Shown here: in pieces, positions 24,001 to 30,000 of the stretch | Numbering within the stretch: position 1 is the first letter of the stretch | Layout of the letters: each line of letters opens with the position of its first letter | Source: Thermoplasmata archaeon | Lineage (GTDB): Archaea; Thermoplasmatota; Thermoplasmata; Lutacidiplasmatales; JAMCUS01 | Assembly (NCBI GenBank): GCA_049966015.1 | Contig: JBMFVL010000007.1 | Location: 1-47,674, forward strand | Direction of reading: 5' to 3' | Length of the DNA stretch: 47,674 bases | Made by a program: the position numbers

Positions 24001-27000
24001 TGTTCTCATTTACCTTTTTCTCTTTGCGTTCTTTCAAGACGACTTCTATATTGGTTGTTTGCTCGTTCCATGCAGTAGATATACCATAAGCCCTTGGCAT
24101 CCTCCATTTTTTAATCCGGCCCCTCGAAGCCGCAATAACATATATATACGCATTTTCCAGATTTATACCATCTTCCTTTGCATTGCTTTCAAGATTTTTG
24201 AACAATTTAAGTATATATTTGGCAACCTTTACAGGATACCTGCCTGGACCAACGCCTTTTTTATGTGCGGTTTCTTGATTGTACCTTCTGATGGGTATCG
24301 CTATTTTTTTGCTTATTACACCCTCTAACAATTTTTTGGCATCGTTGTAGGGCATCCCCCTCAATTTGTTGCATACTTCGTATGCTTTTTTGGGGGAAAT
24401 TGGGTATTCCTTGCCATATGCCTTGGTTATCTTTTTTTCTTTTTTGACATCAATTGTGTAACCTCTCATGGACTCACCTTCACTTCAATGGCATAAACTT
24501 AGAGCTCTTGGTAGCACCGACACCAGGTCCAGAGTGCTTTTCAAATCTTCTTGTTTCTGAAAATTCACCTAAATAATGCCCTATCATTTCTGCCCTTATA
24601 GTAATTTCTTTGAACTCTTTACCGTTGTAAACAGCCACTTTTTTGCCTACAAACTTAGGCAATATTATAATATCTCTTTGATGGGTTTTGACGACTTTGT
24701 CAGGAGAAGCATTTATTATTTTGTCAACCACTTTTTTCTGCTCGTCATTGAACCCCCTCAACAGAGACCTCCTTACCCTTGCTGTTGATATTTTTGCAAA
24801 TTCATTTATATCCATCTTTTTGAGTTCTTCAACAGTCTTTCCCTTATAAGTAAATACCTTTTTTCTCCTTTCTTGAATAAGTGCCTTCTTTTTTCTTGAT
24901 TTTCTTCTAGCACCTTTTGCACTACCACCTTCTGGACACATTTACATTCACCTCTTTTTCTTTAGCTTTTTTCTAATGGGAGCTAACCTGCCCACTTTTG
25001 CACCTGGCCATGCTGAATGAGATACTGTACTTGGCCTGCCCACATGCTGATGGGACCCGCCTCCAAATGGATGGTTTACTGGGTTCATTGCTACACCCCT
25101 TACAGTTATAGGTGCTTTTGCCCTGCTTCTAAACATAAGCATTTTTTTACCTGCTTTTGCAATAGGTTTATCCCTTCTTCCTGCACCGGCTATATTACCA
25201 ATCATCGCTAATGAATCATTGTGAATTTCTTTGTGTTCGCCGGATGGCATCAATACTACTGTTTTAGTACCATGACTTAATATTAACCCAGATGTACCTG
25301 GGGATGTTATGTAATATTTATTTAAATTGGGACCAACTTCTATCATGGATACTACGGTACCTTCTGGTATTTTACCTATGGGCTTTATTGACCCCCTTGC
25401 AATGGGAGCGGATTCTCCACATGAAATTTTCATTCCAGTATAACACCCTTCAAAGGCAGGTATACGATACTCTTTTTTATCCATTAAAAGAACTGCTATG
25501 GGCGCATAATGCCCGGGATCATGATCTATTGATATCACTTCAGCTACGCCTAATGAATGGGGTGCATTAATAGGACCGTGATGTCTGAAACTTGGAGACC
25601 TGTATGTTGCAGTTCCACTTCCCCTTCTTCTTGCTATTACTCTCTTACCCATTATTATTCACCTCAGAATAACCCTATCCTTGCGCCTATTTCACTCGCA
25701 GAATATTCTTTTTTCAATTTTATTATACCGATTTTACCTTGCTTTGTTATATTGGTATTAACGCACTCAACCTTAACATTGAATAATTTTTCTACTGCCT
25801 CTTTTATTTCTTTTTTAGTTGCAGTTCTCCTTACAACAAAAGCAATTCTGTTTTCTTTTTCCATTTCCATCATAACTTTTTCAGAAACGTATGGATGAAT
25901 CACAATATCGTGTTTCATAATTTTCTGACCTCCATTAAATTATCAATTGCCGGTTTGCTGAATATCGTTAATCTTCCCGGTAAACCACCCGGAGCTAAAT
26001 CAGATACAGATAATTGCTTCACTGTTTTCACAGATACCCCTTCCAGTCCTTTGAACCCCAGAGCGGCTTTATTCTCGTTAACAACGATCAATGCACTTTT
26101 TCTTCTTTTTAGCCTTCTTCCCCTTAATTTACCCTTTCCTGCACGCTCTTTTTTTGAATCCTTTGATTTAAGTACGTCATCCCATATACCGAGGGATTGG
26201 AGTATTTTAGAAGCTTCTTTAGCACTTTTTACCGATTCTAGAGAATCCTCAACAACCACAGGGTAGGTCAACTCTTTTGATATTACATGACCTCTAGTTA
26301 GAATATAATCTTTTGTTGCAATTGCAGCCAAAGCACTTTTGAATGCCAACTTAAGCTCTTTCTTGTTTATTTTTCTGTAGTATATTTTTTGTGGTTTGGG
26401 GGGATGTGCTGGTCTTCCTCCCACAGTGTTTGGAGCTTGAGCGCCACGCATTGAGTCTTTTAGCCTGGGAGTCCTTGCGACACCTTTACCTTTCCCTGCC
26501 CATTTCACAGAATGACGCATTCCGCTTAACATAGATGCCCCGTAAGGGACACGTTTTCTCATGTTGTAAGCCCTGACCACTTTCCTTATTAAGTCACCCC
26601 TTACGTCGGTAGTGAAGCATTCTGGCAAATTCATACTTGCCTTGACATTGCCTTCAATTGTATATATATTTATTTTATCCATATCTATGCACCTTGTTTA
26701 GATGTATTTGAAACATATAGTATAGGCATCTCTGGAACAGATTTCCATGCTCTTGCTCTTATTGGATCCCTTAAACGTACTAACCTTTTTGGTGTACCAG
26801 GAACAGACCCTTTCAATAATATTGCATCATTTTTTATTAAGCCGTATTTCAAAAATCCGCCTTTGGGAATTATTTGCCATATATTGAGAGAATGTTTCTG
26901 CCAACCAGGAACTTCTTTCTTTTCTGTATTTTCTTTTTTGGATTCATCTGAGGTTTTTTCTTTTTTAGGTTCTTCCGTATTTAAAATACTTACGTACAGT

Positions 27001-30000
27001 TTATTGTTTATTTCTTTGATATTATATAATCTCTTTTCGTCTATGATTTGCCATTCAGAACCACTGATGGCTTTTACCACTGCAGATTTGGATAAACCAT
27101 TACCATTATCAGAAAAATACTTTTTAATATCGTCAGATAATTCCTTGCTTTCCAGATCTTTTTTCAATGATATACCCATTGTGAATATATTGTTTGATTG
27201 GATATATGCCAACACCATTTTGTTGTATTCAGTTCTCTGGTGGAATCCCATTTGCCCCGATTGTGGTACAGTAGGCATAATATAACTTGGGTTGTGGGGA
27301 CCAAGAGTACCTATCATCCTTATATGTTTACTGTTCTTTCTTGGCTGTAATTTAACCCCCCATCTTTTTATATGCCCCTGGAAACCTTTTCCTTTTGTTA
27401 TAGCAGAAATATCTACAATTTTCAGAGATTCTAAAAATTGAGTTGCCTTTACGTCTTTGCCCAGCAGAGAGAAAGCATATTGTAATCTTTCTTTGATTGT
27501 GCCACCACCTATAGGTATTTCCATAATCTGTGGCTTTTTTGAAGGCAATCCAGAAGTTAAATAAGGCTGGGTTGCTATTATTACTCTGACTTCCTCTATG
27601 GATATGTCATTTTCCAATTTTTCCAAGGTAATTTTTTCTTTATTTTTTTCTTTAGAATCCGTTTTTTCCTTTTTTTCTTGTTTATTATCAACCTTTTTTT
27701 TCATACTGATTTTTCTATGTAACTCTTTCATGTTATTGTCAATGTTATCCATCCATACCTCAGTCTCTGGCTCTATTCCATATACACTTCTTTTATATAA
27801 ACGGATGCCTACCACTTTTACAGGAGGAACCTCTATAACAGTAGTAGGAACAACTATTTCCTGGTTTTCCGTTGTAGAACGTTTCCTTGTGTCTTTCACC
27901 ATTACATGTGTCATTCCTACCTTATATCCGACGAACCCTAACATTTTTGGTTTTCCAGATGTTGTCGGCCAACTAGAGAAGGATGGTACCACACTTTTTG
28001 CTCTTTTTCTGGGAGAGAATCCCATCGAACCTCGTCTTGGCTTATGCCTTTTACCCATAGTTTCACCTCAGCTTTTGAGTATAGCCATATAACCGTAACA
28101 CTATGGCACGCATATAACGATATGTGTTTGCATGCCAGTAGGGAACGTGTTGCCCTGTAGTGTTTGGTTAAATGATACCTTAAGATTGTTTTCCTATCTC
28201 ATTACTACTATTTATATTTTGTAGTAAATTGTGTATGTAAAATTTTATAATTTTAATGCCTTTAGTTGGGCTATATGGTCTTCAGAAATATTACCCAACC
28301 AATTTTTAATGGTGTGTATGGCATGGTTTAACACCAATTCTTTCCCGTTTACTATGTACTCCGCATGTTTTTTCATTTCTATAATGAAGGGGGTATCATT
28401 ACTTTCATTGTAGGCAAAATCTATAGCAAGCGCGTTTTTTGTTAATGACGGAAGTTTGTATGGAAAATTGTTTAACAATGAACCTACAATGGTTGTGTTT
28501 ATTGCTATACTGTATTCTTTTTCTTCGTATATTTTAATGGGAAATTTTTTCATGAGTTTTTCAACATTTTTTTCTTTTCTGGATTTTACATATACCTTAT
28601 AGCCCAGGTCAGCCAAAACAACTATGGAGGTTTTTGATGTTGCTCCTGTTCCCAGAACTATGGCATCTCCTGATACGTTGTATTTCTTTATTACCTCTTC
28701 TAAGGCTTTGTAATCGTTGTTGTTGCCTATAGAATACGCGTTGTTCATTGTAACTGTACTTACTACTCCAGTTCTTTCTACTTCGGGGGATATTATATCT
28801 ATATGTGGTATGATGTGTTCTTTATAAGGAAAAGTTACATTGATTCCACCGAAACTGAATTGTCTTAAATTTTCAATAACCATACCCAGATTAGTTTTAG
28901 ATTTCACAGGAAGTATAAAATAAGGTAAGTATGCGTTGATCATTTGTGAAAAGGATTGAAATATCTTGGGAGATAAGCTATACTTTAGTGGCCATCCTAT
29001 CAATCCATAATATGAACTTGAATTTTTCAGATGATAAAGTTCTTTTATAGGCATAAGCCATTCACTTGTTTTTTTGCTTTCATTGCCATATCCAAAGGAG
29101 AATGATTTTTTATCCTTGGCATTAACTGCACGCATGAATTCATTGCATTCCCCGGATGAAAGTATGGTTATGTTGTAAAAGTAATATTTATCCCTCAAAT
29201 AAAGTGCCTTCAATGCATCTTCTGTAGATTTCATGTTCAATACAATTTTTATATATTCTGGATTTTTTTCAGCCATCTTTTTGATCAAGGTCTCCAGACG
29301 TCTATTGCCCAGATTTTTTTGAGTGTGGTATGATAAGATGATTTTGTTATTCTTTTTTATTTTTTTGCATTCTTCAATGAATTTTCCATCCCTTTTATAT
29401 TCTAGGTCTATGTAATCCCACCCTTCTTTAATCCCTTCTTTTATAAGCATATGTGCAACTTTTGTACCTTCACATTGCCCCCCTTCTTTTCTGGACCTTA
29501 TTGTTAGCATGAGGGGTTTGTTCAGGTTCCTGGCGTTTTCAGTATCAAGAATAGAGGGATAATTCTGTACTTTGATTCCATTTAGGATCAACTTTTTAGA
29601 AAGGTCAAACCTTAGTTCTACAGCATCTGCTAATTGTGCCATTTCTTGATTATCTTTTAAATAATCACTGGACGTGGAGACAACGATCATAAAAACACTA
29701 AATCCATGTAATCATCAAAAAAATTTAAACTTAACTATTTGATTTATCAAAAAAATTAATATATTAATACTGATATTGATTTTTTAGGGTCATTCATAAA
29801 AGTATAAATTTGCCAATTTTACTATAAAACCTAACGCTAAAAAATATAGTAGTAGAAAGAATATTTTATACAATATTTTTTAATAATTTCTTTGAAAATA
29901 TTTATATAGCACTAATTTAATAATGTAGAAATAGATGCTAAAACGCATCCCATCCCTAACCCCTTAATTTTTTTAGGTGTATCTTGCTCTTAATCTTATT

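Follow-up and report, generated by a model that had tools for sequence, protein, structure and literature searches.

The window, a stretch of 47,674 nucleotides from a Thermoplasmata archaeon (genome G000), carries the gene for ribosomal protein uL3 (rpl3) on its reverse strand at 26685..28058. The 457-aa product is identified by PF00297 (E 3.8e-84), by alignment with 29 relatives and by the uL3 chains of the PDB. The gene that follows it in the ribosomal protein cluster, found in the ORF list at 25915..26682 on the same strand, provides context; from a motif and the gene order we take it to be rpl4 (uL4).

The PDB chains match only residues 1–291 and 394–455 of uL3, and the rest is made up of two segments. 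Residues 290–357 form a 68-residue domain encoded by 205 bp (26988..27192, reverse strand), delimited by register and by a profile match (E 1e-19), which we interpret as a probable immobilised copy of an element with IS66 ends. The extra length beyond the domain is a K/E-rich low-complexity loop extension (residues 358–393; 26880..26987, reverse strand) outside the element. Similar loops are present in the domain-free uL3 proteins of family f3 (365–369 aa in 4/4), at the site of the insert, while uL3 of family f2 is 332–338 aa long (24 of the 29 relatives). A preliminary description of this DNA had already reported a domain inserted in uL3 at 26997–27188; the insert and its location stand, and its extent is slightly wider.

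The sister genome G001 has the insert at the same position in a 439-aa uL3, and two further uL3 clusters (P0076 and P0095, 88–90% identity) also contain it. A profile search of G000 finds exactly two copies of the domain, in uL3 and in an FtsZ paralogue on contig C35, whose syntenic orthologue in G001 is without the insert, both as described before. Searches with blastn, nhmmer and a genome search agree with the earlier observation that G000 holds no free copy, and the exact terminal repeat described below occurs at 0 sites in this genome compared with 9 in G001.

Free copies and their IS66 partners

The unit lies in G001 at 18 places (20 BLAST pieces), where five copies had been counted previously. 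The G001 copies are 178–206 bp long, and the full copies end in 13-bp terminal inverted repeats that are exact at 9 sites. Target duplications of 8/8 nt accompany L059, L063 and L069, and 7/8 those at L051 and L077, so that the earlier statement that neither terminal repeats nor target duplications exist has to be withdrawn. None of the 14 copies examined overlaps an ORF of at least 150 aa. With their 13-bp inverted repeats and 8-bp duplications, the non-coding copies are MITE-like elements and not gene-fragment debris, the origin that had been considered for them. Specifically, the element family is short and multicopy, has terminal inverted repeats and a target duplication, and lacks a transposase, nor does the element resemble the transposase frames. 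On one of its strands a single frame is free of stops, and the differences of the non-coding copies are smallest at the second codon position (0.275, 0.188 and 0.269 for the three positions), as would be those of copies from a recently coding source. Apart from one broken copy (L221), free copies of the 68-residue domain were seen in this genome alone. A search for related loci with alignment A4 gave nothing in genome contigs and two loci in the 17 of 64 parts of the metagenome contigs that were searched.

Three full-length, single-ORF IS66-type elements of ISBst12 layout end in the same repeat as the domain element. L180 (1455 bp) has a single 474-aa frame, perfect repeats and an 8/8 duplication, and its transposase matches NF033517 (232.5 bits, cut-off 180) and PF03050 (E 1.5e-31). 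L253 (1491 bp) and L254 (1476 bp) also have 8/8 duplications, and their transposase frames are broken. In the excerpt of PMC12898284 used here, the ISBst12 group of the IS66 family is described by a single ORF, repeats of about 14 bp and an 8-bp direct repeat, and L180 has these traits. Genome G044 contains both L180 and a coding copy of the domain element (L163), an autonomous IS and an element with the same ends in one genome.

The same repeat also encloses dozens of elements whose interiors are unrelated, with duplications of at least 7/8 at 31 of 56 loci among the matches listed, and therefore belongs to the transposon rather than to the domain. The domain element and its three IS66 partners share 13–18 terminal bases and nothing else; an internal-deletion derivative of IS66 was rejected for the three partners tested, since the ends alone match. 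G001 holds IS66 fragments only, one end of which could be read and agrees with the element repeat at 9/13 positions, and four of the five genomes rich in the repeat have no IS66 match. We propose an IS66 transposase because young copies share their 13-bp ends with IS66 elements and have 8-bp duplications, and the likely mobiliser is one of IS66/ISBst12 layout with identical ends.

The encoded domain and its coding copies

The domain of uL3 is predicted by AlphaFold2 at pLDDT 96.8, and the model suggests that it folds autonomously with its two ends close together. The terminal repeats encode YLFS and KLNIY, the predicted first and last strands, and in the consensus the repeat supplies the first and last domain motif (YLFS and LNIY) in every lineage. 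Buried F, W, D and Y positions are conserved, and basic and aromatic surface residues are frequent. Among 24 members searched against Pfam and NCBIfam, no family was matched by more than one; the weak NCBIfam lead noted earlier, NF049895, is noise, with 17.5 bits in 1/24 members where the cut-off is 100. A sequence profile against the PDB gave a best E of 0.17, Foldseek gave nothing at E 0.001, and the best VIA Z scores were 4.6 (68-residue domain, 48,161 chains) and 5.3. For these predicted structures the VIA scores show no known fold, from which a new fold does not follow. The earlier statement of a confident fold with no close PDB match thus holds with altered figures (pLDDT was 91, best PDB Z 4.7). 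Matches in the ESM Atlas (0.85 for the uL3 copy, 0.93–0.94 for a young copy, in unnamed clusters) both lie below the recognition threshold and serve as leads only.

A search with phmmer returned 49 matches, 46 of which carry the domain and three of which are unrelated repeat proteins; the spread across unrelated proteins reported before is thus borne out, the count of 55 is not. Hosts include uL3, RpoA', RpoB, Spt5, TPR, pentapeptide, baseplate, ABC, archaeosortase and kinase proteins, and they occur in bacteria as well as in several orders of archaea. Across the family the element measures 193–223 bp, and a single stop-free frame is kept in all 14 coding copies examined. The reading frame survives insertion because element plus 8-bp duplication is a multiple of three, which supports the preliminary view of a repeat that gives rise to a protein domain wherever its insertion is in frame.

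Some coding copies still show how they arrived. In L163 both repeats are intact (13/13 and 13/13), the duplication is 7/8 and reads VNS..VNL, and 199 + 8 bp make 69 codons; L297 has also kept its 13-bp repeats. Of 92 anchored copies, 8 show a scar at the protein level (null mean 0.58, 0/5000 shuffles), and at the DNA level 4 of 36 copies have at least 6/8 (null 0.56, 9/10000, choosing the best repeat register within a search window), counts that include orthologues and so overstate the independent events. The duplication is below 6/8 in the other 32 coding copies, and in the class sample 18 of 19 have none left. Traces of the repeat persist in the codons: CTA encodes the last Leu in 26 of 30 copies (background 10.7%), and 8 of 9 Poribacteria copies use AGY for the Ser that follows F, compared with 34%. 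Filled and empty alleles are both present. In ANME-1, RpoA' has no insert at three loci, one at one locus and two at four loci, the second insert duplicating the CG of a CxxC motif.

A second domain of 87 residues lies between identical ends (AlphaFold2 pLDDT 95; no Pfam match). Its duplication is at least 6/8 in 7 of 24 copies (null 0.59, 0/10000), and one copy has both repeats and the duplication perfect. Aligned by hhalign, the two domains reach a probability of 39.9, confined to the last 22 columns.

Origin and function of the uL3 insert

Compared with the young repeat, both ends of the uL3 copy are eroded. The left end (27180..27192, reverse strand; NIFT in place of YLFS) agrees at 6/13 positions where the gene background has a mean of 3.0, and alone is not recognisable as a repeat; the right end (26988..27000, reverse strand; KLYVS in place of KLNIY) also agrees at 6/13, with a background mean of 3.7. 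The flanking 8-mers agree at 4/8, so neither intact repeats nor an intact duplication is found, and the 205 + 8 bp correspond to 71 codons. The copy is thus an old relic and not a live MITE. Since it has no usable repeat or duplication, is only 39–46% identical to the free G001 copies, and lies in a genome (94% complete) without a match to PF03050 (IS66), we infer its likely arrival by transposition from homology.

We have high confidence in the following overall reading: an element of about 200 bp, likely moved in trans by an IS66 transposase, left in uL3 a copy that is now old and eroded and encodes a domain predicted to fold by itself. The transposase would cut at the element ends, and a landing in a surface loop, with strand and frame correct, would add a compact domain to the host protein. 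In-frame copies would then be kept under selection to fold, copies outside genes would decay, and coding copies with intact repeats could act as a reservoir for new bursts. Over time the repeats would erode and the domain become fixed, as in uL3, where insertion probably happened once, before the split of G000 and G001.

As to function, we lean towards a tolerated passenger. An adaptive module, binding or stabilising, placed by selection on the ribosome, RNA polymerase and Spt5 with mobility incidental, has roughly one chance in three. The recurrence in information-processing proteins, the basic and aromatic surface of the consensus, and the retention since the G000/G001 split with a third-position excess (25/67, 26/67 and 43/68 for the uL3 copy against the G001 copy) all speak for such a role. 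However, hosts are functionally unrelated, near relatives do without the domain at the same sites, and an insert that only an exact deletion can remove would also be expected to persist in essential genes. This question concerns function, and an adaptive role is compatible with transposon origin.

It is improbable that the domain is an old and ordinary one that was distributed by duplication, recombination and gene transfer and acquired IS66-like ends later in a few lineages, its uL3 copy never having transposed. Such a history would account for the uL3 and FtsZ copies without repeats and duplications, for an interior unrelated to IS66, and for the Poribacteria, where one genome has 22 copies, all within long frames and some of them arranged in tandem, and where the codons of the last Leu are randomised (CTA in 2/14). 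It does not sit well with a repeat that forms the terminal motifs of the domain in every lineage, with repeat-type codons persisting at synonymous sites, or with the same repeat around unrelated interiors. A weaker form, in which the interior was captured from a gene and some copies later spread by tandem duplication, may apply.

Removal of the segment by splicing, as an archaeal bulge-helix-bulge intron or an intein, would leave uL3 at normal size. We consider this very improbable, even though essential genes are interrupted (uL3, RpoA', RpoB, Spt5), as with introns and inteins, and an RNA stem of 13 bp could join the two ends of a young copy (z -1.8 to -3.1 for the whole element). The uL3 junctions are unpaired in the predicted RNA fold (z -0.83), and neither the stop-free frame in 14/14 coding copies nor the conserved buried residues fit a discarded segment. 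Inteins begin with Cys or Ser and end in His-Asn followed by Cys, Ser or Thr; the termini YLFS and LNIY, and the size, are unlike this. A HINT fold was not among the fold matches listed, and such a list excludes nothing. Finally, an assembly artefact or a chance match to a low-complexity linker, which the K/E tail and the 3/49 spurious phmmer matches might suggest, is refuted by independent assemblies (P0076, P0095, and G001 at the same site), is opposed by the confident predicted fold (pLDDT 96.8), and has a negligible probability.

We give an even chance to a broader proposal, that the IS66 end is a general domain-making cassette. The repeat would read as a beta-strand pair that closes a fold, and sequences between the ends could become insertable domains, residing mostly within host proteins and re-mobilised from these; at least two unrelated-looking, unnamed folds may have arisen in this way, in the ribosome, RNA polymerase and Spt5 of uncultured archaea and bacteria. 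Every stage is represented in the databases, from the autonomous IS and the free copies through fresh in-frame copies with their scars and alleles that lack the insert to essential proteins with domesticated, eroded copies. The birth and spread of a domain by transposition can thus be tested directly, using a defined transposase and a donor of 200 bp, and the element offers a natural, compact and widely tolerated in-frame insert. The insert also explains the odd lengths of the marker proteins uL3, RpoA' and RpoB in genomes of ANME-1 and the class Thermoplasmata.

Comparison with known systems

A literature search, with subscription papers and ISfinder outside its scope, found among the entries listed no description of the domain or of an IS66-linked coding MITE. 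The ISBst12-group IS66 elements likewise start with GTA, make an 8-bp duplication and, in L180, have a single transposase ORF; the element differs in having no transposase and in ends that double as protein-coding sequence. PARCELs are also mobile, horizontally spread repeats that code for a protein domain, but their units are palindromic, arranged in tandem and located mainly in surface proteins, with no link to terminal repeats or a transposase described in the sections of PMC2996958 consulted. An archaeal precedent for in-frame repeats in housekeeping genes comes from coding palindromes, reported in Methanocaldococcus jannaschii (Suyama 2005) and in Wolbachia (Ogata 2005); as cited in PMC2996958 and PMC2229807, these are described as palindromes that insert several codons into unstructured protein segments.

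The Rickettsia palindromic elements (RPEs) are the closest known system. In the portions of PMC10969869, PMC2229807 and PMC3184786 drawn on here, they are short repeats found between genes and in frame in unrelated conserved proteins, with a conserved peptide per copy, and a host enzyme, guanylate kinase, tolerates the insert (PMC2229807). Our element likewise occurs both in frame in conserved proteins and between genes. The same portions describe RPEs as stem-loops of 105–146 bp in one genus, with target duplication given as '?' and no transposase named. The descriptions set the element apart, with its 193–223 bp, 8-bp duplication, IS66-identical ends, predicted alpha/beta domain and presence in archaea and bacteria; an interior hairpin was not found, folding being no better than shuffles in 3/3 (z -1.7 to +0.1), with z -0.83 for the uL3 copy. 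Since the discovery of RPEs, selfish repeats have been proposed to create new prokaryotic protein sequence, and in the available parts of the RPE reviews the transposase, the scar and the folded product are missing. Relative to RPEs, what appears to be new here is that the transposase family can be identified, that the product is predicted to fold autonomously, and that the element has spread across archaea and bacteria.

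Ends of the element and its IS66 partners

The sister genome G001 holds decayed copies of the element, nine detected by profile and 18 places by DNA search; among the 14 examined, none overlaps an ORF of at least 150 aa. These free copies are 178–206 bp long (202 + 8 bp gives 70 codons) and end in an inverted repeat of 13 bp, whose left form reads GTAT(C/T)TGTTTAGC and whose right form is its near complement. The flanking 8-mers are identical in three copies (L059, L063 and L069) and one base off in two (L051 and L077), and those of the other full copies read have no match. From base 2 the left repeat encodes YLFS and the right repeat encodes (K/E)LN(I/R)Y, so that the terminal motifs of the protein family, YLFS at the start of the consensus and LNIY or LNVY at the end, are transposon ends. 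In the G001 pair L085:1008–1473 and L050:450–700, one free copy adjoins a broken IS66 transposase gene and another lies just past a tRNA-like sequence recognized by eye.

Repeat pairs with ends 192–222 bp apart were sought in 185,579 genomes, which gave 57 loci. A duplication of at least 7/8 was seen at 31 of the 56 listed, and the interiors of most are unrelated to the domain; L153 and L160, decayed copies of the short-domain element, were left out as independent cases. Loci L120–L176 document widespread non-coding elements of ∼200 bp with the same 13-bp ends, 8-bp duplications and unrelated interiors; they abound in genomes of Woesearchaeota and Altarchaeum (25–42 exact repeats per genome). 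In the order of Ca. Methanoxibalbensis (ANME-1), 52 of the 68 genomes contain the exact repeat, against 7 for the reversed control. One genome of this order carries two elements, each with an 8/8 duplication and a broken transposase frame, that resemble a third, L180, found elsewhere; L180 measures 1455 bp, and its repeats are perfect, its duplication is 8/8 and its single frame of 474 aa lies above the IS66 cut-off. The genome of L180 also holds L163, a coding copy within a long frame, which keeps both repeats and a 7/8 duplication encoding VNS ahead of the domain and VNL behind. A single-ORF layout like that of L180 is given for the ISBst12 group in the relevant passage of PMC12898284. Element interiors and IS66 have only the ends in common. 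Against a partnership with IS66, G001 retains IS66 fragments only, with an end that matches at 9/13, and no IS66 match was found in G000, the window's own genome, or in four of five repeat-rich genomes tested.

Two domains encoded between the same ends

A phmmer search against 1.84 billion proteins gave 49 matches, 46 with the short domain and three to unrelated repeats; adding 61 further matches yielded 181 domain copies, spread over 103 of the 106 proteins collected, whose hosts are mutually unrelated. AlphaFold2, run on 24 sequences, predicts the order strand-helix-helix-four strands (pLDDT 96.8, pTM 0.83); fold comparison gave nothing above Z 4.6, and no counterpart was found in Pfam, NCBIfam or PDB sequence families. 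The distribution is patchy: 43/251 genomes of the class of G000 (families f2, 0/29; f3, 0/3; f17, 25/32), 61/68 in ANME-1, Methanoperedens, and one Poribacteria genome with 22 matches. A Methanocellales RpoB and one archaeal Spt5 carry the domain, and RNA polymerase A' of ANME-1 has no insert in L278, L279 and L281, one in L197, and two in L206, L198, L216 and L217, the second directly after a CxxC motif with CG duplicated. At the Methanocellales loci L177 and L172, RpoB is a single frame of 1208 aa in which the domain occupies the junction of the B'' and B' profiles. The domain also lies in a 2354-aa G001 protein (L038:1488–8552) whose other parts, named by eye, are Kelch-like repeats, triplicated membrane repeats, ARM/HEAT-like repeats and a kinase-like part.

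All 14 coding copies checked use one strand and one frame, with length + 8 divisible by three. In counts that take in orthologues, and so overstate independence, of the three residues on the left flank, the first two reappear behind the domain in 8 of 92 anchored protein copies (null 0.58; 0/5000), a DNA duplication of at least 6/8 is present in 4 of 36 copies (null 0.56; 9/10000), the majority base of these 36 coding copies equals the repeat base at 13/13 left positions, the last Leu codon is CTA in 26/30 (background 10.7%), and Poribacteria copies retain AGY Ser in 8/9 (background 34%) and have lost CTA (2/14).

The same ends bound a second domain, of 87 residues (262 + 8 bp, 90 codons), at L252, L294–L318 (ANME-1 genomes) and L191:1866–2127; it occurs in 39/68 ANME-1 genomes and was absent when searched for in G000. 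Its insertions are younger than those of the short domain. Duplications of at least 6/8 flank 7 of 24 full copies (null 0.59; 0/10000), although that of L295 could be mimicked by the periodicity of its pentapeptide-repeat host; in L297 both repeats and the duplication are perfect. The fold predicted from five sequences (pLDDT 94.8) had no match in fold comparison (best Z 5.3) or Pfam, and likeness to the short domain is restricted to the last 22 columns. P0057, a divergent fused RNA polymerase beta/beta'-like protein (1878 aa) that may be of cellular or mobile origin, has the short domain twice, one of these copies lying within the C-terminal end of a long-domain copy.

Copies in uL3 and an FtsZ paralogue

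A profile search of G000 found two copies of the short domain, in uL3 and in a divergent FtsZ paralogue. The window contains a large ribosomal protein cluster; uL3 (rpl3, 26685–28058, minus strand, 457 aa) carries the element at 27192–26988 on the same strand, 205 bp in register, or 71 codons with 8 bp added. Among 29 relatives' proteins from 30 loci, uL3 measures 332–338 aa in f2 (24 proteins, a range independent of the two unpublished genomes included, G015 and G029), 365–369 aa in f3 (n = 4), where the same loop holds a K/E-rich stretch, and 439 aa in G001, with the insert at the identical site; two further uL3 clusters (P0076, P0095) also have it. Solved archaeal chains match aa 1–291 and 394–455 with ∼6 residues between, which marks the site as a short variable loop, presumably solvent-exposed. 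K/E-rich expansions occupy two uL3 loops (window 26880–26987 and aa 105–150), and because f3 has the counterpart of the former without the domain, the loop was probably permissive before insertion. Upstream of rpl3, a 481-aa ORF (28245–29690, minus strand) resembles by eye a dehydroquinate dehydratase-shikimate dehydrogenase fusion.

The uL3 copies of G000 and G001 cluster together on long branches (support 96/99), differ most at third codon positions, and are only 39–46% identical to free G001 copies, which are nearer to the G001 kinase copy and L163 (56–63%). On this evidence uL3 gained the element a single time, ahead of the divergence of the two genera. Homology to the other copies suggests that it arrived by transposition; the window's copy, whose left and right ends each match the repeat at 6/13 positions and whose flanks agree at 4/8, is now immobile.

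Erosion is equal in the FtsZ paralogue (C35:11261–12517, minus strand; L037:3262–4518), whose syntenic G001 orthologue is without the segment. This protein scores 40 bits, far below the ftsZ cut-off of 295. Its glycine-rich GTP-binding loop seems degenerate beside that of the G001 orthologue, and the paralogue may be catalytically altered.

Mechanism and comparison with known repeats

Ends, duplications, frame arithmetic, partner elements, filled and empty alleles and decay outside genes are directly observed. An IS66 transposase would mobilize the element in trans, and the first and last strands of the domain would pair, barely disturbing the host loop. Two observations suggest that coding copies may serve as a reservoir: free copies diverge little from one another at second positions (in non-independent pairs), and they are scarce elsewhere. 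Splicing of the insert is unlikely.

Our literature search found no description of the short or the 87-residue domain. Term searches of two surveys (PMC11602168, PMC13343696) turned up no passage on in-frame insertion or IS66 MITEs, and their supplements could list the free elements. In-frame gene fusions are reported, in the passages concerned, for Rickettsia palindromic elements (RPEs), ERIC, BOX, Wolbachia and M. jannaschii repeats (PMC10969869, PMC3184786, PMC2229807, PMC2996958), so this kind of phenomenon is already known. The element is real and acts like an RPE, yet is not one: what sets it apart is that its transposase family can be identified, that the repeat encodes the protein termini and that two folds are predicted.
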